NCBI GenBank assembly: GCA_045627605.1 | Contig: JAZQOA010000056.1 | Span: forward strand, 23,685-87,684 | DNA: 64,000 bases | From: Kiritimatiellia bacterium | Lineage (GTDB): Bacteria > Verrucomicrobiota > Kiritimatiellia > RFP12 > JAAYLN01 | Direction of reading: 5' to 3' | In this document: in pieces, positions 5,997-47,979 of the stretch | Numbering within the stretch: the stretch's first letter is position 1 | Layout: every line of letters starts with the position of its first letter | Position numbers and translations under genes: made by a program | Notes under the pieces: model-generated | Databases searched by the model: none | Told to the model about the DNA's origin: nothing | The model's input: only the letters and a program-made list of their open reading frames with translations

Positions 5997-6242
5997 TTTC
6001 TGTTTCTCCTTTGTGCCGCCCTCTACGTCTCTTTTCGACTGGAGCGGTCGCCTAATATTCAAGCAATCGCCATGCCAACTTTGCAAGGCCTCGGCATTTC
6101 ATCGCGCCAAACACCTGCGCAACAACTTTCTAATTTAATGAAAACAAAAATTGGCACACGGGGCCTGTCACACCGTGAATGTCACACTTTTCCGGACGCC
6201 AACCCAAAACTGCGACATCGTGTCACACCCCGGTTGCGGCGG

Positions 6243-6532
6243 CGCGAACCTTTCGCGTCTCGTGTCCTTCTGCGGCGAGCAAGGGCGTGAGACACGAGAC
6301 GAGAGACATGAAGCACCAGCTCCATCCTCGATCAACTGCGGCGGCGGGGCGATCCTTTCGCGTCTCGTGTCTCGCGTCTCGTGTCCTTCTGCGGTGAGCA
6401 AGGGCGTGAGACACGAGACGCGAGACATGAAGCACCAGCTCCATCCTCGATCAACTGCGGCAGCGGGGCGATCCTTTCGCGACTCGTGTCTCGCGTCGCG
6501 TGTCCTCTGCGGTAAGCGAGGGCGTGAAGCAC
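6243..6532. repeat. Array of ~123-bp hairpin-containing repeat (REP-like), about 2.5 units
   Basis: Unit GCGATCCTTTCGCGTCTCGTGTC...GAGACACGAGACGCGAGACATGAAGCACCAGCTCCATCCTCGATCAACTGCGGCAGCGGGG, with a 13-bp inverted repeat CGCGTCTCGTGTC / GACACGAGACGCG. The same family recurs at 7345-7477 and 15470-15885. Confidence 0.85.
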
Positions 6533-6534
6533 CC

Positions 6535-6574
6535 AAAAAGCATCGTGTGCGCGTCTTCAAACGCGCACACGATG
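6535..6574 (-). terminator. Rho-independent terminator (13-bp stem plus T-tract on the minus strand)
   Basis: CATCGTGTGCGCG-TCTTCAAA-CGCGCACACGATG, followed on the minus strand by CTTTTT. Lies 3' of the duplicated adhesin 3'-end fragment. Confidence 0.6.
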
Positions 6575-6585
6575 CCGCCACCCTA

Positions 6586-6720
6586 CTTCATTTCGACCTT
6601 GACGTGGAAGAACCGGTGCGACGCCTCGACGGGGCTGCTCCACATGCCGCCGAGTTCCGCCTTGCCCTTGATCGTGTAGGTGCGCTTCGCCTCGTCCTCG
6701 GGCGGCGTGAAGGCACCGTC
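6586..6720 (-). pseudogene. Duplicated 3'-terminal fragment (about the last 45 codons) of the adhesin gene at 9366-13508
   Basis: About 90% nucleotide identity to 9366-9500. It encodes ...SSPVEASHRFFHVKVEMK-like C-terminus plus a stop, with no upstream coding continuity. Confidence 0.75.
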
Positions 6721-6739
6721 TGACCAGAAATACGCTTGC

Positions 6740-6800
6740 GATAACACCGTAATTCATGTATACTATACGGCAAAAACAAGCCAAATGAGGTAGGTTCACA
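6740..6800 (+). promoter_or_regulatory. Putative dinJ-yafQ promoter/operator with palindrome GTATA-C-TATAC
   Basis: Near-perfect inverted repeat GTATACTATAC at 6758-6768 overlapping a TATACT -10-like hexamer. The region is conserved upstream of the second TA copy (15035-15105), with GAGGT RBS. Confidence 0.4.
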
Positions 6801-7070
6801 ATGTCGAGCATGACTATTTCAGTAGATGACAAAGTCAAACGTGAGTTCTCGGCCTTCTGCAGCGATGTCGGGCTCTCCGCTTCCGCGCTCATCAACGTGT
6901 TCATGGTGAAGACGGCACGCGAACGCCGTGTGCCGTTTGTCATCGAAGTGCCGCACAGCCCAAATGCTGAAACCATCGCCGCGCTTGAAGAAGGAGATCG
7001 CATCGTCAATGACCCTACGCGCAAAAGGTACACAAACCTTGAAGAGCTTTGGAAGGATCTTGAATCGTGA
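6801..7070 (+). CDS. dinJ: Type II antitoxin, RelB/DinJ family
   Basis: 89-aa ORF MSSMTISVDDKVKREFSAFCSDVGLSASALINVFMVK, typical of DinJ. Its stop overlaps the toxin start (GTGA). Confidence 0.85.
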   Translation: MSSMTISVDDKVKREFSAFCSDVGLSASALINVFMVKTARERRVPFVIEVPHSPNAETIAALEEGDRIVNDPTRKRYTNLEELWKDLES

Positions 7071-7342
7071 AGTACGCGATTGACAGGACTGCCACTTTCA
7101 AGCGCGACTACAAAAGGGCAATCAAACGAAACTTGCCGATTGAGAAGCTTCAAGCCGTCATCGGCAAACTCGCCAGAGGCGAAGAACTTCCGCCAGCCAA
7201 TCACGACCATTCGCTTTCAGGAAACTGGTCAAACCACCGCGAATGCCATATCGCCCCAGACTGGCTGCTGATTTACCAAATCAAGGAAAGTGTCCTCGTC
7301 CTTGAATTGACACGTACCGGCACCCACGCCGACTTGTTCTAA
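7067..7342 (+). CDS. yafQ: Type II toxin, YafQ/RelE-family mRNA interferase
   Basis: 91-aa ORF with the YafQ-like C-terminus HRECHIAPDWLLIY...LTRTGTHADLF. GTG start overlaps the antitoxin stop. Confidence 0.85.
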   Translation: MKYAIDRTATFKRDYKRAIKRNLPIEKLQAVIGKLARGEELPPANHDHSLSGNWSNHRECHIAPDWLLIYQIKESVLVLELTRTGTHADLF

Positions 7343-7344
7343 CC

Positions 7345-7477
7345 CGCCGCCGACGCGATCCTTTCGCGTCTCGTGTCCTCTGCGGCGAGCGAGGTCGTGA
7401 GACATGAGACGCGAGACAAGAAGCACCAGCTCCATCCTCGATCAACTGCGGCAGCGGGGCGATCCTTTCGCGTCTCG
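7345..7477. repeat. ~123-bp hairpin repeat, about 1.1 units
   Basis: Same family as 6243-6532. It begins right after the yafQ stop with CCCGCCGCCGACGCGATCCTTTCGCG. Confidence 0.85.
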
Positions 7478-7590
7478 CGAACGATTCCCGGCTCTTTAAT
7501 CGGCGGGCAAAAGCCCGCCTATGTAAAAAGAGCGATGTAAATTGCCGAGATTGCCGAGGCAATTCACGGTAAAATGCTACAAAATGACCG
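7478..7590 (+). repeat. ~110-bp repeated element X with three consecutive palindromes (copy 1)
   Basis: CCGGGAA-CGA-TTCCCGG; GGCGGGC-AAAA-GCCCGCC; ATTGCCGAG(ATTGCCGAG)GCAAT; then GGTAAAAT. A second copy lies at 14805-14905. Confidence 0.7.
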
Positions 7591-7632
7591 GGAAATGTCA
7601 ATTACGCGGCGTTCTGGGTTCTATGCACGGGT

Positions 7633-8919
7633 TTAAGGACGAAGACAACCGATGGGGCAGATCAGGGTTCCGTCGTTCGCCTGATAGGCGTAAGCACCCT
7701 CTGCAACGACGATCATCCTGAACGACGGAGCCTTCATTAGCTTCGTGTCAATTTCTTCCTCAAGCTTTTTAAGCTTTTCACGCCCCTCTGATATAAGTGC
7801 CTCGCCGCCCAGCTTCACTTCAATGAGTCCGTACTTTCCGTTGCGCAAATGCATGACCGCATCGCACTCAAGCCCGCTCTTGTCACGGTAATGACTAACT
7901 TTCCCGTCATTCGCCTCCGCATACGTTCGCAGATCTCGCGCAACAAGCGTTTCGAAGAATAGCCCGAATGTCTTCAGATCGTTCATCAGATCGTCCGGCC
8001 CCAGTCCCAGCACCGCCGTTGCAATCGATGGATCAGTGTAATATCTCGTATCCGTCGTCCGCACCGGTGTCTTACAGCGGAGATTTGGGCACCACGCCGG
8101 CATATCCTCGACGACAAAGAGCTTTTTCAATGCTCCGATGTACGAAAAGATTGTATTCTCATGAACGCCACTTTTCGGTAAATTCGGGACAAGGTCGGCC
8201 TTGACCGCAGAGGCGGCTGATTGCGTGCCCTGCAAACGGGCCAAAGACTTCATGATGCGAAGCGCAAGGTCGGGGTCCCGCCGAATGTCGTCCACTCTGG
8301 AAATGTCCGCATTGACAATGGCATCCACATAATCAAATGCCTGACGCAATGCCGCCCTTCCCGTTTTCTCTGTTGCCTTAGGCCATCCACCGCGACAGGT
8401 CAAGTACGCGATCTCCTCCAGCGTATGCGGCATTGCATCGCCTAGTCGAACCTTACCAGCAAACAATTCTGCGAAAGAGACACCCCCCGACGATTCCTCG
8501 CTCTCGAACAATGCCATTGGGCGCATCTTGATCCAGGCAAACCTTCCGGTTCCCGTATGATGAATCTTTTTCTTCGCTTCTTCATCCAAAGGAACCGCAC
8601 TGCCAGTAAGAATGTATTTGCCGTCCCCATCCGAATGATCAACGTCAAAACGGATTGCATCCCAAAGCTCTGGCGCAATCTGCCACTCGTCAATCAACCG
8701 CGGATTATCCCCCTCCAAAAGACGTTGCGGGTTCGTTTGCGCCGTCAAAAGATACTGCCCTTGACATTTGGGGTCGTTCAGGTAGATAATACTTTTGGAA
8801 ATCTGCTCGGCTGTTGTCGTCTTCCCACACCACTTAGCCCCTTCAATCAGAACAGCGGCCTTCGCCTGAAGCGCGTCAGCCAAAATAGCGTCCAATACTC
8901 TATTTTTATACTTTTTCAT
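7633..8919 (-). CDS. AAA+ ATPase, COG1373 family (AAA_14 plus DUF4143-like C-terminal region)
   Basis: 428-aa ORF with Walker A GAKWCGKTT and Walker B LIDEWQ. Its GC is lower than the flanking DNA. Confidence 0.8.
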   Translation of the reverse strand: MKKYKNRVLDAILADALQAKAAVLIEGAKWCGKTTTAEQISKSIIYLNDPKCQGQYLLTAQTNPQRLLEGDNPRLIDEWQIAPELWDAIRFDVDHSDGDGKYILTGSAVPLDEEAKKKIHHTGTGRFAWIKMRPMALFESEESSGGVSFAELFAGKVRLGDAMPHTLEEIAYLTCRGGWPKATEKTGRAALRQAFDYVDAIVNADISRVDDIRRDPDLALRIMKSLARLQGTQSAASAVKADLVPNLPKSGVHENTIFSYIGALKKLFVVEDMPAWCPNLRCKTPVRTTDTRYYTDPSIATAVLGLGPDDLMNDLKTFGLFFETLVARDLRTYAEANDGKVSHYRDKSGLECDAVMHLRNGKYGLIEVKLGGEALISEGREKLKKLEEEIDTKLMKAPSFRMIVVAEGAYAYQANDGTLICPIGCLRP

Positions 8920-8958
8920 AGTGTTATTGTATCAAATAGAATATCTGGCATCAAGCCT

Positions 8959-9081
8959 CATTGTGACGGTTGGCGCGATTTCATTGTGGCGGTTGGCGCG
9001 ATTTCATTGTGGCGGTTGGCGCGATTTCATTGTGGCAGTTGGCGCGATTTCATTGTGGCAGTTGGCGCGATTTCATTGTGA
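8959..9081. repeat. 23-bp perfect tandem direct repeats x about 5.3 (iteron-like), in the 5' region of the ATPase gene
   Basis: CATTGTG(A/G)CGGTTGGCGCGATTT repeated head-to-tail with period 23, with only 1-2 substitutions between units. It starts 40 bp upstream of the ATPase start codon. Confidence 0.9.
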
Positions 9082-9090
9082 GTCCACGAG

Positions 9091-9136
9091 CATCCCTTAT
9101 GCCCCCGCATCTGTGGGGGCATAAGGGATGTTTTTG
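9091..9136 (+). terminator. Strong stem-loop with T-tract (terminator-like) on the plus strand
   Basis: Perfect 16-bp stem CATCCCTTATGCCCCC / GGGGGCATAAGGGATG with a 9-nt loop, followed by TTTTT. Confidence 0.5.
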
Positions 9137-9365
9137 GGGCGGACGAGACGATCCAGCTGACCGACTCGCGCACGGCGGAGGTGTACCCGACGAGCTGCGC
9201 CGCGTGACCGCCATGGTCGAAATCAACGGCAGAAGGCAGAAGATGACGTTCCTCACAAACACCCCGTCTGGGCGGCCTCGACCGTCGCCGAACTCTACCG
9301 GGATCTGCGGGAGATTCATTAAGGTCGGTCGGCGCGAAGGCGGCGACTGACCAAGAATAGCCACC

Positions 9366-12300
9366 CTACTTCATCTCCACCTTGACGTGGAAGAACCGGT
9401 GCGATGCCTCGACGGGGCTGCTCCACGTGCCGCCGAGTTCGGCCTTGCCTTCGATCGTGTAGGTGCGCTTCGCCTCTTCCTCGGGCGGCAGCTTCGGCTC
9501 CCATGAGACCACCGGGGCACCGTTCTCGAACGCGATCCGCGCCCGGAAAACGGCATCCTTGTCCGTCGGGTCGAGCCCGGCGACGTAGCACTGCCAGACC
9601 TTGTCCACGCCGTTCGCGGCGGTCGCCATCGCCGCCGTCTCGTACGCCGCCTCCGTGCCGCCAAGCCCGTATTCGTCGAGCCATTCGTAGGGCACCGGCA
9701 CGGGCGTGGTCTGCGTCTCGGACGACTCCGACGGCATTTCGCCGCTCCACGACACGCAGTCGATCGCCACGAAGTCCGCGATGTCGTCAGCGGTGCCTGC
9801 GTTCCAGAACTCCCAGCGGACGACATGCTCGCCTTCGCCGGTGATTTCGGTTGACATCGCCGTCCAGCCGCAGGTGTCGTAGAGTCCGTCAACGGGTTCC
9901 CCGTCGATGAACAGGTCGAATCCCGCCGCATGCCCCGTCGAGACCATCGCCTTGTAGGCGAGCGTCCCCGGCCCGGTGACCGTCGTTTCAAGGCAGCTCA
10001 CGTCGTCCCCCAGCACCGGCCCGGAAACCGCCGCGCCCGTGGCGTCCGACGCGATCTCCAGCTGCGGCGTCCAGGCGGCGGCGCCGTAGGTCGTCCACTC
10101 CAGCTTCGGCGCGTCGAGGACGCCGCCGAGGGTGACGGCGTTCACCGCGACCGCCAGCGAACGCGGCCTGTCCGCGACGAACGAGAGCGAATTGCCGTCG
10201 CGGGTAACGCCCGTCCTGTCGCCCGACACCTCGGCCGTGTAGAACGCCGTTGTCGGCGCGAAGTCGATGCGGACGCTCTCGCCGTACTTCACCCACCGGT
10301 TCGTGAAGGACGTCGTGGCGGGGCCCGTCAGGGAGAGCTCCACCCAGCAGTTCGTCTCCCACAGCCACGTGATCTCCGAATCCTCGTAAAGGACAAACGA
10401 AACCGTGTTCGACGGGCCGCTTGCGGGAATGCTCCCGCTTCCGGCCCAGCCGATGCAGCCGTACCGCCAGCCGTCTTCCTCGACGACCGCCTCCACCGAG
10501 GCCGTCACCACGTCACCGTAGTGGCGCGCGCCCTCCGTCCCCGACACGACCGCCGTGCCGTGCGCGGACGACGCGGTGACATTCTCCACCGGCAGCCACG
10601 AGGTGCAGACGGCGGAAATCGTCCGCGGCCTGTCCGCGACGAAGACCAGCGCGTCGCCCTCGCGGGCAACGCCCGACATGTCGCCCGTGAAGGCGAACTC
10701 GTAGAAGAGGGCGTCCGTCGCGAAGTCGATGCGGACGCTCTCGCCGTACTTCACCCACTGGTTCGTGAAGGCCGTCGTGGCGGGGCCCGTCAGGGAGAGC
10801 TCAACCCAGCAGTTCGTCTCCCACAGCCACGTGATTTCCGAATCCTCGTATAGCGTAAACGAAACCGTGTTCGACGGGCCGCTTGCGGGAATGCTCCCGC
10901 TTCCGGCCCAGCCGATGCAGCCGTACCGCCAGCCGTCTTCCTCGACGACCGCCTCAACCGAGGCCGTCACCACGTCGCCGTAGTGCCGTGCGCCGTCCGT
11001 CCCCGACACCACAGCCGTGCCGTGCGCGGTCTGGGCGGCGACGTCAAGGAACGGCCGCCACGAGACATTGTCCACGAAACCCGCGTCCTCGCCGGCGGCC
11101 GTGGTCGAGCCCTTCTCGTAGCGCCAGGTGACGGCGTGCTCGCCGTCGCCCAGCTCGAACGCCACATGCGCCCACGCCTTCTCGCCGCTGACTCTCGCCT
11201 GCTGGACGCCGTCGGCGTACACCGCGAGGAAATGGCCGCGGGCATTGCAGGAGACGCGCCAGTCGAAGGCGAAGATGCCCGCGCCCGAAACCGCGACGGA
11301 CATCTCCGTCGCCGCGCTGCTCCCGATCTCCGGGCTCCGCACCGCGTAGCCGCCCGGGCTGTCCGCGTCCGCGACCGCGTACCACTCAAGTTCGTTCGTC
11401 ACGGAGACGGGCCAGACGTACACGCCCAGCGAATCCGTGATCACGAAGGGCACCTCGACCGCGCCCGTGTAGTTGACCCCGCCCGTCACAACCGCGCAGC
11501 CCGTCCCCGGGCGGTCGTTGTCGCGGTAGGACACCTCGTAGTTCCCCGGGGCGACGTCGCGGCCGTCCGCCGTCACGGACACCGCCGGGCAAATCGCCTC
11601 GCCGAGATACACATACACATTGGGGTCGCACGTGGCCGTCCATTCCTCGACCGGGAGGATCGTGAACGTCGCCCCCGTGAACGAAAGCGTGTAGTTCCCG
11701 CCCGCGTCGAGCGTCCCCTGCCCAATCGCGTAGGTGCCCGCGTTCTCGCCCGCCGCGCGGGTCAGCGCTCCCGTCATCTTGTCGGTTCCCACAAGGCCGC
11801 TCGCCGTGTAGGTCAGGGCCGGATCGGCGGCACCGTAGGTCTTTGACGCGGCGTTGGCGGTCACCGTAAGAGCCTTCTTGTTGATGATGAAATTCGCCCC
11901 CGTGAACGAAAGCGCATAGTTCCCGCCCGCGTCGAGCGTCCCCTGCCCGATCGCGTAGGTGCCCGCGTTCTCGCCCACCGTGCGGGACAGTGCACCCGTC
12001 ACCTTGTCGGTACCCACAAGGCCGCTCGCCGTGTAGGTCAGGGCCGGGTCGGCGGCGCCGTAGGTCTTCGACACGGCGTTGGCGGTCACCGTAAGAGCCT
12101 TCTTGTTGATGGTGAAATTCGTCCCCGTGAACGCTATCGTGTAGTTCCCGCCTGCGTCGAGCGTTCCCTGCCCGATCGGGTAGGTGCCCGCGTTCTCGCC
12201 CGACGCACGGGACAATGCACCCGTCACCTTGTCGGTTCCCACAAGGCCACTCGCCGTGTAGGTCAGGGCCGGATCGGCGGCACCGTAGGTCTTTGACGCG

Positions 12301-13508
12301 GCGTTGGCGGTCACCTGCACGGCGCGTTTGGCGATGCAGACGGGGATGACGCCGGTTTCAACGACAGCACCGTTAATGGTGACCTTGTACCAGATGTTCG
12401 TGTCGCATACATCCCTAAAGACGGGCCTTTCGGAAGAGTAGGCGCCGTTTTCGGAAGATGCGTAGGAGACGGCGCACGGTACGCTTCCGCACTCCGCCGT
12501 GACGGACACCTCCAACGCCACGCCGTCGTAGCATTTCTCGCAGCCGTTCTCGGGCACGTTACAATCGTACCGCGTCATGCGAAGTCCCCGCCAGGTTCCA
12601 TCGGAGGAAATCGCCGCTTCCCACTCCTCGCTGAACTTCGACGGGTAGTATCCGGCGGAGCAGTACGAGCCGAAGTCACGATAGTCAAAACTGACATCGG
12701 GAACGCCTTCTGGAAAGATGAATGACGTTAGGCTGCGGCAACCGTAAAACGCATCGTCCCCGATGCTCGTCACCGACGACGGAATCGTCACTGACGCCAA
12801 GCCGCTGCAATAATAAAACGCTTCCATCCCGATGCGCGTCACGCCATCGGGAATCGTCACAGACGTCAGCCCGCTGCAATAATGAAACATTCCAAATCCG
12901 ATGCTCGTCACGCCCACGGGAATCGTCACAGACGTCAGGCCGCTGCAACCCGCAAACGCAGAGCTCCCGATGCTCGTCACCGAAGACGGGATCGTCACAG
13001 ACGTCAGGCCGCTGCAATTGTAAAACGCAGAGTCCCCGATGCTCGTCACGCCCTCAGGGATCGTCACTGCCCCGTTTTTACCGGCAGGGCATTGGATCAG
13101 CCCTGTTTGCGCTATGTCATAGAGAATGCCGTCAACGGAATAATACGACGGATTGCCGTTGGCAACGGCGATCGCCGTTAGACAGCGGCACCCCCTAAAC
13201 GCACCATTCCCGATGCTCGTCACGCCTTCGGGGATCGTCACAGACGTCAGACCGCTGCAATTGTAAAACGCATAATCACCGATGCTCGTCACGGGATAGC
13301 CGTTGATCGTTTCGGGGATGGCGACGCTCCCGCTCGTGCCTGTCGGAATCGCCGACGACCAACCGTTGCCTATCGTCGCCTTTCCGCCACTAACGCTGTA
13401 CTGCCACGTCACACCGTTGCCGTCGGTGTACGTGTCGCCAAAGGCAACGGCCGCGCTGAACACTAACGCGGCCGCAAGCGCACAAAAGCGCAAAGCAAGT
13501 TTTTTCAT
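9366..13508 (-). CDS. Large surface adhesin-like protein: signal peptide, BspA-type leucine-rich repeats, 3x MBG domains, 2x ~160-aa tandem repeat (Listeria-Bacteroides-repeat-like)
   Basis: Start taken at MKKLALRFCALAAALVFSAAVAFG (ATG at 13508), not the upstream ORF start. Repeated xIPxxVTSIGxxAFxxCxxLTSVT modules. Three ~76-aa KTYGAADPALTYTASGLVGTDK...GGNY repeats. Confidence 0.85.
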   Translation of the reverse strand: MKKLALRFCALAAALVFSAAVAFGDTYTDGNGVTWQYSVSGGKATIGNGWSSAIPTGTSGSVAIPETINGYPVTSIGDYAFYNCSGLTSVTIPEGVTSIGNGAFRGCRCLTAIAVANGNPSYYSVDGILYDIAQTGLIQCPAGKNGAVTIPEGVTSIGDSAFYNCSGLTSVTIPSSVTSIGSSAFAGCSGLTSVTIPVGVTSIGFGMFHYCSGLTSVTIPDGVTRIGMEAFYYCSGLASVTIPSSVTSIGDDAFYGCRSLTSFIFPEGVPDVSFDYRDFGSYCSAGYYPSKFSEEWEAAISSDGTWRGLRMTRYDCNVPENGCEKCYDGVALEVSVTAECGSVPCAVSYASSENGAYSSERPVFRDVCDTNIWYKVTINGAVVETGVIPVCIAKRAVQVTANAASKTYGAADPALTYTASGLVGTDKVTGALSRASGENAGTYPIGQGTLDAGGNYTIAFTGTNFTINKKALTVTANAVSKTYGAADPALTYTASGLVGTDKVTGALSRTVGENAGTYAIGQGTLDAGGNYALSFTGANFIINKKALTVTANAASKTYGAADPALTYTASGLVGTDKMTGALTRAAGENAGTYAIGQGTLDAGGNYTLSFTGATFTILPVEEWTATCDPNVYVYLGEAICPAVSVTADGRDVAPGNYEVSYRDNDRPGTGCAVVTGGVNYTGAVEVPFVITDSLGVYVWPVSVTNELEWYAVADADSPGGYAVRSPEIGSSAATEMSVAVSGAGIFAFDWRVSCNARGHFLAVYADGVQQARVSGEKAWAHVAFELGDGEHAVTWRYEKGSTTAAGEDAGFVDNVSWRPFLDVAAQTAHGTAVVSGTDGARHYGDVVTASVEAVVEEDGWRYGCIGWAGSGSIPASGPSNTVSFTLYEDSEITWLWETNCWVELSLTGPATTAFTNQWVKYGESVRIDFATDALFYEFAFTGDMSGVAREGDALVFVADRPRTISAVCTSWLPVENVTASSAHGTAVVSGTEGARHYGDVVTASVEAVVEEDGWRYGCIGWAGSGSIPASGPSNTVSFVLYEDSEITWLWETNCWVELSLTGPATTSFTNRWVKYGESVRIDFAPTTAFYTAEVSGDRTGVTRDGNSLSFVADRPRSLAVAVNAVTLGGVLDAPKLEWTTYGAAAWTPQLEIASDATGAAVSGPVLGDDVSCLETTVTGPGTLAYKAMVSTGHAAGFDLFIDGEPVDGLYDTCGWTAMSTEITGEGEHVVRWEFWNAGTADDIADFVAIDCVSWSGEMPSESSETQTTPVPVPYEWLDEYGLGGTEAAYETAAMATAANGVDKVWQCYVAGLDPTDKDAVFRARIAFENGAPVVSWEPKLPPEEEAKRTYTIEGKAELGGTWSSPVEASHRFFHVKVEMK

Positions 13509-13612
13509 CGTGCATTCTCTTTCGCGCCAACCTTGTCGAGGCCTGCCGCTCCGGCGCGAAAAGAGGAGCGGCTGGCCTTCCAGTTCTAAACTCGTCTTCC
13601 GACACAAAACCG

Positions 13613-14548
13613 TCACTTCGACCCTTTGCACATGGCGCAGTGAGTGTCGCATTTGGCGCAGCAGTCGCAAGGCCCAATGCGAAGATTCCCCTTGAACAAG
13701 CTTTCCATAATCGGGTTGAACTCGTCCGACACGCCAGCAGCGCGTCTGATGAAATCACGGACGGCTTCGACCAGATCCCCATGGCATTCTTCATCGTTTA
13801 CACAGACACGGAGCCGCCCGATCAGGCTCTCACGCTCCATCCAGGGGCCTGTAACCACCGGGGGATGATTTTTATCACCCTCCTTGCCGTACTCGAGCAT
13901 CTCGGCCAAGACATCAGTGGCCTCAATCTCAATCTTATCCGCTTTGACACCTTCGGGAAGTGTGACAATAAGACGGGCCTCCCTCTCGTCACGCCAGCCA
14001 AGATATTTTGACACTCCGGGGAGGAGTTTTATGTTTTCCTGGAAATTACCCATCCCATCCGACATTATGCAAATTTCGCCATTCGAGAAATGCACAAGAT
14101 TTTCTTTATTCCCGGAGAGGTAGCACACATACGACAACTTCGCCTCGGCGGCAACGCAGTGATCCTCTTGAACATGTCCGCCGACAACAGGATATGCATT
14201 CAGTTTCCCGCCTTTGAAAAGGGCCAGAATCTTGCTCCTTGAAAAGCGAAGGCGAATCGCCTCGTTCCTTGTCCGTCCATAGACTGTCCACATGGCCGGA
14301 CTCTCCGTCGGGGCGGCGGAAAGGGAAAAGACGAATGTACGATCAGCTCCGGGGAACTTTTCCGTACCGTCATTCATCGCGTCGGCACGGGAAAGACGGA
14401 GCCGTCCGTACTTGAGCATGCCAAGCAGACCTTCGATCCTGGTATGGTGAAACATATTGTATTGCCCACCGACTGTTTTTTCATCGATGCGGAGCCGTTC
14501 ACATATCTGATCTGCCGTCAGACTTTCAAGCGTAGTTTTCGTGCTCAA
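13613..14548 (-). CDS. DUF2971-family protein with Cys-rich C-terminal tail
   Basis: 311-aa ORF. MFHHTRIEGLLGMLKYGRLRLSRADAMNDGTE matches the DUF2971 N-terminal NDxxE signature. C-terminus GPCDCCAKCDTHCAMCKGSK. The start is uncertain: either TTG at 14548 or ATG at 14455 (MFHHT). Confidence 0.65.
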   Translation of the reverse strand: MSTKTTLESLTADQICERLRIDEKTVGGQYNMFHHTRIEGLLGMLKYGRLRLSRADAMNDGTEKFPGADRTFVFSLSAAPTESPAMWTVYGRTRNEAIRLRFSRSKILALFKGGKLNAYPVVGGHVQEDHCVAAEAKLSYVCYLSGNKENLVHFSNGEICIMSDGMGNFQENIKLLPGVSKYLGWRDEREARLIVTLPEGVKADKIEIEATDVLAEMLEYGKEGDKNHPPVVTGPWMERESLIGRLRVCVNDEECHGDLVEAVRDFIRRAAGVSDEFNPIMESLFKGNLRIGPCDCCAKCDTHCAMCKGSK

Positions 14549-14804
14549 TTCATGATGCCTCTTTCGCGCCTACCTTGTTGAGGCCCGCCGCTCCGGCGCG
14601 AAAAAAGAGTGGCGTGCCTTCAGAATATGTCTTATCTGAGGCACCGCCAAGCGCCCATAGCTAAACATAATGATGAAAGTACGCCACGTGATCGCATCAC
14701 GTGACGCAACCTTCGTATTCGCTTAGCTATTGAAAAATTGGCGGTATTTCAGATAAAGCCAAATACGCAGTTGCGTACGTCCCCCGGCCCGAGGCCGGGA
14801 CACA

Positions 14805-14905
14805 CCGGGAACGATTCCCGGCTCTTTAATTGGCGGGCCACGCCCGCCTATGTAAAAAGAACAACGCAAATTGCCGAGGCAATTCGCAGGTAAAATATTA
14901 CACAA
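14805..14905 (+). repeat. Repeated element X (copy 2)
   Basis: CCGGGAACGATTCCCGGCTCTTTAATTGGCGGGCCACGCCCGCCTATGTAAAAAGA...AAATTGCCGAGGCAATTCGCAGGTAAAAT. About 85% identical to 7478-7590. Confidence 0.7.
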
Positions 14906-15109
14906 AAGCGGCAGTTGTGTCAAACAATTCTGGAGATGCCGCGGCTGCCACCGCGTCGCGACACCTCCTTTTGAACGGGCTAAAGAATCCCCTCCTTTTA
15001 GAGTCCTTTCCAGGCGGCGACCGACCTTGAATACGCTTACGACAACACCGTTGTTTACGTATACTATACGGCAAAACCAAGCCAAACGAGGTAGAGCTCA
15101 ATCTCGAGC

Positions 15110-15467
15110 ATGACTATTTCAGCAGATGACAAAGTCAAACGTGAGTTCTCGGCTTTCTGCAGCGATGTCGGACTCTCCGCTTCCGCGCTCATCAACGTGT
15201 TCATGGTGAAGACGGCATGTGAACGCCATGTGCCGTTTGTCATCGAAGTGCCGCACATCCCCAATGCCGAAACCATCGACGCGCTCAAAGAAGGCGATCG
15301 CATCGTCGATGACCATACGCGCAAAAGGTACACAAGCCTTCAGGAAACTGGTCGAATCACCGCAAATGCCATATCGCCCCCAGACTGACTGCTGATCTAC
15401 CAGATCAAGGAAAGCGTCCTCGTCCTTGAATTGACTCGTACCTGCACCCACGCCGATTTGTCCTGAC
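15110..15467 (+). pseudogene. Degenerate dinJ-yafQ locus: DinJ antitoxin fused out-of-frame to the 3' end of yafQ after a ~190-bp deletion
   Basis: The first 76 codons are about 90% identical to dinJ at 6801. A deletion removes the dinJ 3' end and yafQ codons 1 to about 50. The remaining yafQ tail (HRECHIAPD...) is out of frame. Confidence 0.75.
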
Positions 15468-15469
15468 CC

Positions 15470-15885
15470 GCCGCCGACGCAATCTTTTCGCATCTCACGT
15501 CCTCTGCGGGGAGCAAGGGCGTGAGACACGAGACGAGAGACAAGAAGCACCAGCCCGCCCTCGATCAACTGCGGCAGCGGGGCGATCCTTTCGCGTCTCG
15601 TGTCCTCTTCGGGGAGCGAGGTCGTGAGACACGAGACGAGAGACATGAAGCACCAGCTCCATCCTCGATCAACTGCGGCAGCGATGCGATCCTTTCGCGT
15701 CTCACGTCTCGCGTCTCGTGTCCTCTGCGGCGAGCAAGGGCGTGAGACACGAGACGTGAGACAAGAAGCACCAGCCCACCCTCGATCAACTGCGGCAGCG
15801 GCGGGGCGATCCTTTCGCGTCTCGTGTCTCGCGTCTCGTGTCCTCCCGCGGTGAGCGAGGGCGTGAGACATGAGACATGAAGCGC
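15470..15885. repeat. Array of ~123-bp hairpin repeat, about 3.5 units
   Basis: Same family as 6243-6532 and 7345-7477, and again starts CCCGCCGCCGACGC right after the TA stop. Confidence 0.85.
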
Positions 15886-15913
15886 CCGCCCAACCCCTCA
15901 CCCGAAACGGAAA

Positions 15914-15982
15914 CCGAATCTGACCGAATGAAAATGCCGAATCTGACCGAATGAAAATACAAAATATGACCGAACGAAATCA
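15914..15982. repeat. 23-bp tandem repeat x about 2.5
   Basis: CCGAATCTGACCGAATGAAAATG repeated with period 23. It is AT-rich relative to the surrounding DNA. Confidence 0.7.
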
Positions 15983-16096: not shown

Positions 16097-16894
16097 ATGA
16101 ATGTTGGAAAGTATCTGGAACGCATCGGCTACCAGGGCGGTCTTGAACCGAACGCCGCAAACCTCGCCGCGCTCGTGCAGGCCCACCGTCTCACGGTTCC
16201 CTACGAAACGTTCGACATCTGGCGCGGGCGCCATACGACACTCGCCATCGAGGACATCTACGGGAAAATCGTCACGCGCCGCCGCGGCGGCTACTGCTTC
16301 GAGCTGAACGGCCTCTTCGCCTGGCTGCTGCGCGAACTCGGCTACAATGTGCGCGAATACTTCGGCCGCTGGCTCCTGGGCGAAGACCGGGCCGTGCCAA
16401 AGCGCCGCCATCGCGTCGTGTGCGTCGCCCTGCCGTCGGGCCCGAACAAGATCGCCGATGTCGGCATCGGCATGCCGTTCGTCCTCTCGCCCCTCGACTT
16501 CGTCCTCGACGTCCCCCAAGTGGGCGACAACAAGATCTACCGCTTTGTGAAGGATCCTGTCCTGACTTGCGCGGTGCAGGCGAAAAAGCGGGACGGCACC
16601 TGGGTCAATCTCTTTTCATTCGACACCGCGCCGCAGCTGCCGATTGACTTCGCCTACGCGCACTGGTGGTGCGAGACGCACCCCGACAGCCCGTTCCGGA
16701 AAAACGCCTGGGCCTTCCTGCCCCTTCCCGACGGCGGCTTCAAGTCCATCCGCCTGGAAGCCGTCCCCGGCACGGACGAACCGCTCCCCGTGTTTTCGGC
16801 CGTCGCCGCCGACGGAACGGAGCAAAAGTCCATTTTGCACGGCGAGACGGCCCTCGCCGAAGCGCTCAGGGAGCATTTCGGCATCGTCGAATAA
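16097..16894 (+). CDS. Arylamine N-acetyltransferase (NAT family)
   Basis: Catalytic-Cys motif RGGYCFELNG. Start taken at MNVGKYLERIGY, the typical NAT N-terminus. Confidence 0.85.
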   Translation: MNVGKYLERIGYQGGLEPNAANLAALVQAHRLTVPYETFDIWRGRHTTLAIEDIYGKIVTRRRGGYCFELNGLFAWLLRELGYNVREYFGRWLLGEDRAVPKRRHRVVCVALPSGPNKIADVGIGMPFVLSPLDFVLDVPQVGDNKIYRFVKDPVLTCAVQAKKRDGTWVNLFSFDTAPQLPIDFAYAHWWCETHPDSPFRKNAWAFLPLPDGGFKSIRLEAVPGTDEPLPVFSAVAADGTEQKSILHGETALAEALREHFGIVE

Positions 16895-46536: not shown

Positions 46537-46669
46537 CCTTGGCCAATCAGGAGCGGACGATGTGGATCGCCTTGCCGTCTTGCACCGCGTAAATAAGGCG
46601 TTTTGGAGTGATGAAATTTCGTAAATAAGGCGTTTAAGAAGCGTGAATTTTCCCAAATAAGGCGCTTCG

Positions 46670-46707
46670 CGTTGACACACAGAAGAAAGAAAGTGTATAA
46701 TACGTGC
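46670..46707 (+). promoter_or_regulatory. Canonical sigma70 promoter TTGACA-N18-TATAAT, preceded by 3 direct repeats AAATAAGGCG (46580-46670)
   Basis: TTGACACACAGAAGAAAGAAAGTGTATAAT immediately upstream of the ATG at 46708. The segment is low-GC. Confidence 0.5.
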
Positions 46708-47979
46708 ATGAATTTGAGCAAAATACAGCTTATTTTGGCAGATCAGAAGGGAATTCTTGACGGTTTGCTTGCTTCTGAGACTTGTCATCGTGCTGAAGAG
46801 AGGCTGGTCAATCTCGACAGCAAGCTTGCGCAGGTCGTTACGGGAGTTCGTCGTTCCGGCAAGTCCACGCTCTGCCTAAATGTCTTGCGGGATTCTGGCA
46901 AACGCTTCGGATATGTTAATTTCGATGACGAACGGCTTGCGAATCTGACGGGGGCGGATCTTGACGATGTGCTTACGGCGGCATATAAAGTTTACGGGCA
47001 ATTCACACATCTGTTTTTAGATGAACCCCAGAACATTCCAGAATGGAGCCTTTTCGTCAATCGCCTTTTGCGCGGCGGGATGCACGTTCTGGTTACAGGG
47101 TCGAATTCAAATCTTCTTGCCGGTGAACTTGGCACTCATATGACCGGGCGATATACGGAGATCAAGCTGTTTCCGTTTTCCCTTAGGGAATATTGCGCAT
47201 TGAAGAAGGTGGATTTGGATTCGATGGCTTTGAAGGCGCGTGCGCTCAGGTCGGCGGCATTCGATGATTACCTGAGGGATGGTGCATTTCCCGAAGTGGC
47301 AAAGGGAGAATCGCCGCGTTCGTACGTGCGAACGCTGATTGAGAACATTCGCACGAAAGACATCGAGCGGCGCCATAAGATACGTTATCGTTCGGCTCTG
47401 AAGAAGTTGATGGATTATGTTCTGAATGTTGTACCGACGACACCTGATTTTGACGAGCTCGCTCGACTTTGCGGTTTCTCGAGCCGCCACACTTCCGAGA
47501 ACTATGTCGAATATATGGAGCGATCCTTCCTGATTAATCGCATCAGCAAGTATTCCTCCAAGCCGCGTGTCCGCATGGTTGGCGAGAAGCTTTATGCTGT
47601 GGACGTATCCTTTATGTCGGAACGCGACAATGCGCTACAGGGCGAGAACCTCGGTTGGCGAATGGAAACAATCGTCGCGCTGGAACTCTTGCGCCGCATG
47701 CGTCCGCTGTTCAAGGACGTGTATTATTACGCCGATTCCGGACATGAATGCGATTTCGTCGTGTGCGATCGCCGCAAGGTGGAATCTCTCATTCAGGTGA
47801 CTTATGATATGTCCGCCCCAAAGACGAGAAAGCGCGAGATTGGCGGTGCGGTAGCCGCCGCAAAGGCGACTGGACTCAAAGAGGCGACGATTGTAACTTA
47901 CTCGGAACTTGACGACATCGTTGATCCGTCCGGAGTGACGGTTCATCTTGTGCCCGTTGCGGATTGGCTCGTTTCATGA
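46708..47979 (+). CDS. AAA+ ATPase, COG1373 family (AAA_14 plus DUF4143), second paralog
   Basis: Walker A GVRRSGKST and Walker B LFLDEPQ. C-terminal DUF4143-like region. GC is about 48%, against about 65% in the flanks. Confidence 0.8.
   Translation: MNLSKIQLILADQKGILDGLLASETCHRAEERLVNLDSKLAQVVTGVRRSGKSTLCLNVLRDSGKRFGYVNFDDERLANLTGADLDDVLTAAYKVYGQFTHLFLDEPQNIPEWSLFVNRLLRGGMHVLVTGSNSNLLAGELGTHMTGRYTEIKLFPFSLREYCALKKVDLDSMALKARALRSAAFDDYLRDGAFPEVAKGESPRSYVRTLIENIRTKDIERRHKIRYRSALKKLMDYVLNVVPTTPDFDELARLCGFSSRHTSENYVEYMERSFLINRISKYSSKPRVRMVGEKLYAVDVSFMSERDNALQGENLGWRMETIVALELLRRMRPLFKDVYYYADSGHECDFVVCDRRKVESLIQVTYDMSAPKTRKREIGGAVAAAKATGLKEATIVTYSELDDIVDPSGVTVHLVPVADWLVS

Follow-up and report, generated by a model that had tools for sequence, protein, structure and literature searches.

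Three arrays of a hairpin-containing tandem repeat were found between dnaK and the gene for arylamine N-acetyltransferase (NAT) in a 64,000-nt stretch of DNA (the window) from an uncultured gut Kiritimatiellia bacterium (contig JAZQOA010000056.1 of assembly GCA_045627605.1, positions 23,685 to 87,684, forward strand). The arrays are interpreted as a locus-restricted, slippage-prone hairpin minisatellite that would serve as a homology tract for the gain and loss of gene cassettes at this accessory-gene hotspot, an interpretation to which we assign a probability of roughly 0.55. On the best reading of the data they are a species-specific mosaic intergenic repeat of the same type as the bacterial interspersed mosaic elements (BIMEs) and the neisserial intergenic mosaic elements (NIMEs). 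As a sequence family they are new; as a kind of element they are already known. No new mechanism is implied, since Neisseria and Enterobacteria provide earlier examples of homology-driven cassette flux at repeats of the mosaic intergenic type. The arrays are of interest as a case, from a gut lineage that has barely been sampled, in which the gain and loss of accessory genes beside a core heat-shock operon appear to be organized by a small hairpin minisatellite.

Arrays and repeat units

All units of the three arrays lie on the + strand and follow one another head to tail (Table 1). The units were delimited by splitting at the head motif, and the window was found to contain six full and three truncated units. 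This agrees with the first-pass annotation of this DNA, which had reported about nine copies in three clusters, and was supported by Tandem Repeats Finder (TRF), by the counts of arm and tail sequences, and by a profile hidden Markov model (HMM). TRF gave a period of 119 at 6253-6527 (94% matches; score, 494), a period of 103 at 15482-15828 (score, 434), and a period of 118 at 15591-15880. The arm TCGCGTCTCGTGTC (14 nt, at most 2 mismatches) occurred 21 times in the window against 1.44 expected, in every case inside the three arrays. The unit proved shorter than the ~123 bp first proposed, measuring 103 to 105 nt in a short form and 119 to 120 nt in a long form, the latter corresponding to the short form plus 14 nt, i.e., two more heptads in the 5' arm. 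Array 1 is situated ~240 bp upstream of the divergent dnaK start (5996).

Each unit starts with the head CGATCCTTTCGCG and continues with a 5' arm of two, three, or four TCTCNNG heptads (GTCTC plus two variable bases), an apical segment TCC-TCTGCGGNGAGCRA-GGKCGT, a 3' arm of one to three GAGACNN heptads, and the tail GAAGCRCCAGC-(TCCAT or CCGC)-CCTCGATCAACTGCGGC-AGCGGGG. The conserved tail and head together make up 45 to 55 nt per unit. The earlier description of a conserved tail was borne out, as the 17-mer CCTCGATCAACTGCGGC was identical in every full unit of the window and its six exact copies in the window are all in the arrays. Every array begins and ends within the tail segment. GATC was ~4 times denser inside the arrays than outside, and GTCTC was mildly under-represented outside them (observed/expected ratio, 0.75), densities that are too little distinctive to build on.

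The inverted repeats of the units are 14 to 31 nt long and 76 to 95% complementary, and two pairing registers were recognized per unit. The outer register is a Watson-Crick stem with a loop of ~24 nt, and in the inner register GTCTCNNGTCC pairs with GGGCGTGAGAC via G.U pairs, leaving a loop of ~11 nt. The 13-bp perfect inverted repeat with a ~25-nt loop that was originally noted therefore stands as regards the outer stem and its loop, but the 13-mer is perfect in some units only, the remaining units being 93 to 95% complementary over 14 to 21 nt, and a second, inner register accompanies it. Long units combine both registers into a stem of ~27 bp (−58 to −60 kcal/mol), with fold z-scores of −4.3 and −4.4, and short units gave z-scores of only −0.2 to −2.6.

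Table 1. Positions of the repeat arrays and neighboring features in the window (TA, toxin-antitoxin; LRR, leucine-rich repeat)
Feature	Position	Strand	Remarks
Array 1	6233..6532	+	Partial tail 6233-6244; short unit 6245-6349 (105 nt); long unit 6350-6468 (119 nt)
Array 1, last unit	6469-6532	+	Truncated, without 3' arm
Intrinsic terminator	6539..6576	-	17-bp stem followed by T run; present in the window, absent from L001 and L002
3'-end duplicate of LRR_5/MBG_2 gene	6577..6706	-	130 nt, 94% identical to 9360-9489
Intact type II TA cassette	6711..7342	+	relB 6801-7070, yafQ 7067-7342
TA promoter-like site	6736-6764	+	TTGCGA-17-TATACT
Array 2	7343..7478	+	Leader CCCGCCGCCGACG directly after yafQ stop; short unit 7356-7459 (104 nt)
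Array 2, end		+	19-nt stub of next unit, cut off by element X
Element X, left copy	7479..7601	-	Promoter-like TTGACA-16-TAGCAT (7601->7574) and hairpins
AAA_14/DUF4143 ATPase	7633-8919	-	Island cargo
LRR_5/MBG_2 surface-type (BspA-like LRR) protein	9366-13670	-	Island cargo
8xMP-family protein	13613-14548	-	Island cargo
Element X', right copy	14809..14925	-	Promoter-like TTGACA-17-TAATAT (14923->14895)
TA' pseudogene copy	15012..15466	+	~90% identical to intact TA cassette
Array 3	15467..15895	+	Leader CCCGCCGCCGACG; units 15480-15582 (103 nt), 15583-15686 (104 nt), and 15687-15806 (120 nt)
Array 3, terminal unit	15807-15895	+	Truncated; closes with distinct end module GAAGCGCCCGCCCAACCCCTCACCCGAAACGG
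23-nt tandem repeat ACCGAATCTGACCGAATGAAAAT	15913-15979		2.9 copies; between array 3 and NAT promoter-like site
NAT gene	16097-16894		Preceded by array 3, then 23-nt tandem repeat

Unit variation between strains

Five further assemblies of the species were found by exact-protein look-up (ENA ERZ27247149, -192, -115, and -126; Logan ERR6929681), and the six assemblies compared were thus the NCBI metagenome-assembled genome (MAG) containing the window, four ENA samples, and one from Logan. The strain loci were labeled L001 (a 138.6-kb contig), L002, L005, L006, and L007, and all strain comparisons were made between short-read metagenome assemblies (k141 contigs). The flanking DNA was 98 to 99% identical between the window and the other assemblies. 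The arrays differed between strains in copy number, with 3 to 4 units in array 1 and 3 to 5 in array 3 (full plus truncated), and 24 of the 25 full units collected were distinct sequences. Head-to-tail units of 10 to 150 bp, a strain-variable number of them, and conserved flanks, as observed in these short-read assemblies, are the properties by which a variable-number tandem repeat (VNTR) or minisatellite is defined.

The units are combinatorial mosaics that differ in the number of heptads per arm and draw on several apical loops, two tail variants, and three unit ends. Such combinatorial differences appear to be the signature of slippage and of recombination between units. The sequence is repetitive at two scales (7 nt and ~104 or 120 nt), which would lead to expansion, contraction, and reshuffling by replication slippage and by unequal or homologous recombination, as the mosaic units suggest. 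The junction between array 1 and the toxin-antitoxin (TA) cassette was found in three forms, namely, with the LRR fragment and the terminator, with the fragment only, and with neither, and the 130-nt LRR duplicate occurs in the window, L001, L005, and L007 but not in L002 or L006.

The haplotype of L001 proved particularly informative. This contig has dnaK, array 1, the intact TA cassette, one array, and then NAT, and the 8.1-kb stretch from element X to TA' is missing. The first unit of the single array is the unit of array 2 (A2), carrying its diagnostic GGTCGT apex and GAGACATGAGACGCGAGACAA arm with only 2 differences, and the next two units are of array 3 (A3) types that L002 also has at the end of its A3. 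Alignment of the flanks gave 99.3% on the left and 98.1% on the right. From the hybrid A2/A3 array and the missing island, a crossover inside the array was deduced, which bears out the earlier proposal that the repeat might be a recombination substrate. L001 and the island haplotypes thus appear to differ by an A2-A3 exchange in unit register, by way of either a deletion or a Campbell-type insertion.

The arrays would provide directly repeated homology on either side of acquired cassettes, these being the RelB/YafQ TA cassette and the 8-kb AAA_14-LRR-8xMP island. Given such homology, recombination between arrays in unit register would delete whole cassettes or insert them by a Campbell-type event. 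Judging from the L001 haplotype, and subject to the assembly caveat given below, deletion or insertion of a cassette via the arrays has probably taken place. Effects on expression, such as 3'-untranslated region (3'-UTR) hairpins that stabilize or end the TA transcript or that insulate dnaK, would presumably be a by-product, and a role as 3'-UTR hairpins is possible on the predicted folds. The arrays also account for the breaks of the species assemblies at this point, and they could be used as a strain-typing marker.

Several points weigh against this interpretation. The island-less join is known from a single short-read contig (L001), where a false join across repeats is possible; more generally, tandem repeats can be misassembled, and the contigs of L005, L006, and L007 break inside arrays. 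The head/tail junction CCTCGATCAACTGCGGCAGCGGGGCGATCCTTTCGCGTCTC, which contains two GATC sites 21 nt apart, shows almost no variation, unlike the remainder of the unit, and this could reflect a bound factor or a preferred crossover point instead of neutrality. The inner register stays paired in every unit via G.U wobble, on the + strand only, and the + strand RNA is ~4 kcal/mol more stable than the - strand RNA, as would fit a transcribed element. Further arrays could lie outside the ~74 kb of the species genome that was covered, and a protein-based census detects only those arrays in which a gene caller placed an open reading frame (ORF).

The first of these points corresponds to an explanation in which the arrays, or their variation, arise from misassembled short reads. 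All sources are indeed metagenome assemblies, and three of the contigs break inside arrays. This explanation is hardly credible, since the same family with the same boundaries was recovered in six independent assemblies and distinctive unit types recur among them. Identical stretches between units were ~45 to 60 nt, well below the k of 141, and the units differ enough to be resolved at that k.

Distribution of the repeat family

The profile HMM was built from 24 units and run with nhmmer --max. It matched the three window arrays and their counterparts in the other assemblies of the species, whereas the remaining ~61 kb of the window and the 10 kb on the left side of htpG, together ~71 kb outside the locus, gave no match, nor did the MatE-homologue loci of other Kiritimatiellia MAGs or the related TA loci. 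The tail pattern had 0 matches in the GTDB genomes, the JGI metagenomes gave 18 single chance matches to a 21-mer, none with hairpin arms, and IMG/VR gave 32 single chance matches to a 17-mer, again without hairpin arms; the species is absent from all three collections. No match to the repeat was found among plasmids and phages. Gene callers sometimes call an ORF across array 1, as in L002 (P0013) and in the window (P0014), and this provided another route to the census. A search of 5.8 billion proteins with P0013 returned only itself and P0014, and the same two proteins, with no others, were recovered when P0014 was run against 1.84 billion representatives in an index-free HMMER scan. Every one of these censuses, each partial and short of a whole genome, indicates that the repeat family is confined to the dnaK-NAT locus.

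Sampling of the host lineage is very sparse. At 90% identity, its GroEL cluster had only 4 members among 15 billion proteins, all from this organism. The nearest GTDB genomes were Kiritimatiellia MAGs from rumen and other samples, in which the neighboring MatE protein is 67 to 79% identical, and a GTDB scan with this protein showed neither synteny nor arrays near its matches.

An alternative is that the window holds three clusters of an ordinary, genome-wide family of repetitive extragenic palindromic (REP) sequences or BIMEs, possibly moved by a REP-associated tyrosine transposase (RAYT) or a Y1 transposase of the IS200/IS605 type. Inverted arms and a linker in tandem do resemble BIME-2 clusters with strain-variable copy number, the 5' arm contains CGTC, CGTC-tagged REPs are known in bacteria of the Planctomycetes-Verrucomicrobia-Chlamydiae group (PMC3733652), and the censuses did not extend to a whole genome. 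The alternative is nevertheless considered distinctly improbable, as the other ~61 kb of the window and the extra 10 kb contained 0 copies, and array-derived ORFs among 15 billion proteins came from the dnaK-NAT locus only. Furthermore, the window genes examined and the flanks showed no Y1 transposase, nor did those genes include any recombinase, and the units do not alternate in orientation. REPs are typically dispersed through many intergenic regions, in tens to thousands of copies per genome. CGTC REPs are defined by a stem of 8 to 9 bp, a loop of 4 to 5 nt, an unpaired GTAG/CGTC tag at one end, and a 3-nt tail (PMC3733652). The stems of the arrays are 11 to 27 bp and the loops at least 5 and up to ~24 nt, with CGTC inside a paired arm rather than in an unpaired tag, so that the first-pass remark that the repeat is unlike classic REP elements in its dimensions was upheld. 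One lead toward a RAYT, a gene following a related toxin (L075/L076) that looked RAYT-like by eye (PDHLHF motif), gave no Pfam match and was dropped.

Pairing and the RNA-element alternative

A further alternative is that the arrays are a selected + strand RNA element, either 3'-UTR stem-loops that end or stabilize the relB-yafQ transcript, in the way known for E. coli REP elements, or a small-RNA array. Consistent with this, arrays 2 and 3 begin 13 nt past the stop codon of the toxin gene, no terminator intervening, the long units have the strongly negative fold z-scores given above, and the variants of the inner stem are confined to exchanges of G.U with A-U and of U.G with C-G, so that pairing on the + strand is never broken. 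Together with the more stable fold of that strand, this asymmetry is the sole hint of constraint at the RNA level.

The alignment of 24 units had 87% of its cells paired in the inner register and 90% in the outer register, and the covariation measures equaled those of shuffled alignments, compensatory changes being no more frequent than in the shuffles. When arms were swapped between units, stability was not lowered (−33.8 kcal/mol for real units and −33.7 kcal/mol for chimeras). The persistence of pairing was attributed to the fact that both arms consist of the same heptad, and not to compensatory change; there is no sign of selection on pairing. Of 4227 Rfam covariance models, none matched the arrays at the gathering threshold, where only a tRNA elsewhere in the window passed, and in E-value mode the arrays gave only sub-threshold miRNA-hairpin noise. 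The absence of a match in Rfam and the other databases searched agrees with the view that the family is undescribed, and the proposal of a structured small-RNA family was not supported by these data. The RNA-element explanation is also opposed by the weak folds of the short units, by the lack of an upstream + strand gene or promoter at array 1, and by the lack of a U tract after the hairpins, although the organism uses canonical terminators (6539-6576 and 9088-9135). In addition, related TA loci are without arrays, and one of the two array-bearing TA copies is dead. On balance the explanation is regarded as unlikely.

Relation to the TA cassettes

Both TA loci are followed by the CCCGCCGCCGACG junction and then by a first unit, and the first-pass annotation had noted an array directly behind each of them. 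This holds for arrays 2 and 3, with the qualification that the second TA locus is a pseudogene. Array 1 follows no TA gene. The TA' copy has lost 177 bp across the 3' end of relB and the 5' half of yafQ, its relB ATG is changed to ATC, and a 1-nt insertion shifts the frame. The identical junctions were explained by duplication of a module consisting of the TA cassette plus a unit.

Two arrays directly behind relB-yafQ cassettes with an identical junction sequence would also be expected of a TA-specific element, i.e., an array to which RelB/YafQ bind, or else an RNA that serves as antitoxin or decoy in the manner of the type III ToxI repeats. This is extremely improbable. No 8-mer was common to the TA promoter/operator region and the arrays, which argues against the suggested binding of TA proteins, and a functional link to the TA genes finds no support in array 1 or in the related loci. 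The YafQ toxin has more than 2300 homologues at an E value of ≤1e−10, and at seven related RelB/YafQ loci (toxin 75 to 87% identical; two on long Kiritimatiellia contigs) no array was found after the stop codon, where the sequence is unrelated. The arrays do resemble ToxI in being tandem direct repeats that adjoin a toxin gene. ToxI units, however, measure ~36 nt, are located upstream of the toxin gene, and are cleaved by the toxin, and type III repeats in general are ~34 to 45 nt and are co-transcribed with an endoribonuclease toxin that lacks a protein antitoxin, whereas the present units are 103 to 120 nt, lie downstream, and also occur away from TA. The toxin here is of the YafQ/RelE type with a RelB antitoxin, and a protein antitoxin is thus already present.

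Close homologues of YafQ (70 to 87% identical) are very numerous, most of them on contigs of <3 kb, which suggests that TA cassettes of this type are generally found in repeated or variable contexts in gut Kiritimatiellia. In another MAG (L069), a related TA cassette adjoins dnaJ-grpE and a tRNA gene.

Possible site-specific capture of cassettes

The nearly invariant head/tail junction, together with the fact that the arrays begin and end in the tail segment, could point to an integron-like array (attC sites, or a CALIN, in which clustered attC sites have no integrase) or to another site-specific recombination site that captures cassettes. The likeness is to the attC/Vibrio cholerae repeats of chromosomal integrons, imperfect palindromes of ~60 to 140 bp that immediately follow the stop codon of TA cassettes with promoters of their own in a variable part of the chromosome, much as imperfect palindromes of ~100 to 120 bp follow the TA cassettes here. 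The core sites of attC were not recognized. The stem base is TTTCGCG / CGAGA, there is no complementary R''/R' pair, and GATCAAC in the tail, which is near RYYYAAC, has no GTTRRRY partner on the same strand. Rather than one attC per cassette, as many as 5 units follow one another in tandem without anything in between, and neither an integrase nor any other recombinase was detected among the window genes examined or in the flanks. The crossover in L001 is in unit register, as expected of homologous recombination. For these reasons an integron-like array is highly improbable.

A related possibility is that the arrays are the recognition or crossover sites of an undescribed cassette-capture system distant from its integrase, the junction, which adjoins a heptad hairpin, being bound or cut by a trans-acting factor encoded elsewhere in the genome. 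We regard this as very doubtful. If true, Kiritimatiellia would have an integron-like hotspot based on a site of a new kind, at which TA cassettes and surface-protein islands are inserted and excised.

Comparison with known repeats

Among the known systems, the arrays would seem to work most like the mosaic intergenic repeats, BIME-2 and the Neisseria NIMEs. They share with BIME-2 intergenic palindromes and conserved linkers, a tandem period of ~100 bp, and a strain-variable copy number (PMC3333891; bioRxiv 10.64898/2026.03.23.713779). BIME-2 and REP clusters are often located in 3' UTRs, where the hairpins affect the fate of the mRNA (PMC3333891; bioRxiv 10.64898/2026.03.23.713779). The differences are that BIMEs alternate the orientation of their REPs, occur at hundreds of loci, and are linked to RAYTs, whereas the present arrays have head-to-tail units with arms made of heptad runs, occupy one known locus, and showed no RAYT. 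The dRS3 element of the NIMEs has itself been classed as a CGTC REP (CGTC-1) (PMC3733652).

The minisatellite proposed here shares with the NIMEs the arrangement of mosaic units beside a surface-protein gene; no sequence similarity to them was found and no dispersal was seen. NIMEs consist of RS units bounded by dRS3 and form mosaic arrays of 50- to 150-bp units with short inverted repeats beside genes for variable or surface proteins. They are thought to promote recombination and exchange of neighboring cassettes, and they are dispersed in many copies, dRS3 being a 20-bp element that also acts as a phage integration site. Repeats of the BIME-2/NIME type are strain-variable hairpin arrays by accessory genes, which offer homology for rearrangements and incidentally put hairpins into 3' UTRs.

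Mycobacterial interspersed repetitive units (MIRUs) are VNTRs with tandem units of 40 to 100 bp between the genes of operons and a strain-specific copy number that is used for typing. They differ in being present at ~40 loci and in containing small ORFs that couple the translation of the flanking genes, without long hairpins, whereas the unit lengths of the present arrays (103, 104, 105, 119, and 120) break the frame and an ATG is not conserved (GACATGAAG versus GACAAGAAG). A CRISPR array had been dismissed at the outset, and rightly so, as the inter-hairpin segments are conserved where unique spacers would be expected; there were also no cas genes among the Pfam results for the window. A replication origin with iterons was considered as well, but no replication genes were seen and no supporting context was found.

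Neighboring genes and other repeats

The left end of the window carries htpG-groEL-groES-dnaK on the minus strand. The G+C content at third codon positions (GC3) is 0.57 to 0.64 for the TA, AAA_14, and 8xMP genes (TA cassette, 0.62 to 0.64), compared with 0.8 to 0.95 for core genes, and for this reason the former look acquired. Elements X and X' form a direct repeat of ~120 nt that brackets the island, with two hairpins each. The promoter-like site of each copy is a strong one on the minus strand; that of the left X points antisense into array 2 and the TA cassette, and that of X' faces the 8xMP-LRR-AAA_14 genes. Neither the AAA_14 gene nor a gene of 630 aa at 61147-63039, close to the right end of the window, was on record when looked up.

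The 23-nt repeat ACCGAATCTGACCGAATGAAAAT has one copy fewer in L001, and one stretch within it (TCTGACC..GAAAT) is similar to the TA cassette at its left edge (6718-6735). Another 23-nt unit, TCATTGTGGCGGTTGGCGCGATT, is repeated 5.3 times at 98% identity at 8958-9135, just upstream of and divergent from the AAA_14/DUF4143 gene at 7633-8919, and a + strand intrinsic terminator follows at 9088-9135. Similarly, a tandem repeat (2.4 copies of 32 nt, 46588-46664) precedes a second AAA_14/DUF4143 gene (46672-47979), and tandem repeats before such genes may be a recurrent regulatory or small-RNA feature. The + strand ORF at 9141-9323, ending in ...ELYRDLREIH, has a likeness to the C terminus of IS4-type transposases by eye only and no Pfam match. 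The LRR_5/MBG_2 gene contains internal repeats of 462, 225, and 69 bp, and its product varies in length between strains (1434 aa in the window and 1613 aa in L002). At 16973-20394, two paralogues of 460 and 463 aa without a Pfam match flank a small gene for a CesT-like chaperone; the DNA repeats of the pair are 73 to 80% identical, and the arrangement resembles an effector-chaperone module.

To the left of the window, an intergenic element of ~135 nt containing the hairpin AAGGGACTGTCCCCTT follows the MatE gene. It is present in two tandem copies in L078 (13441-13711) and L079 (13441-13690) and in one copy in L080 (4322-4437), and it represents another strain-variable intergenic duplication in the same species.

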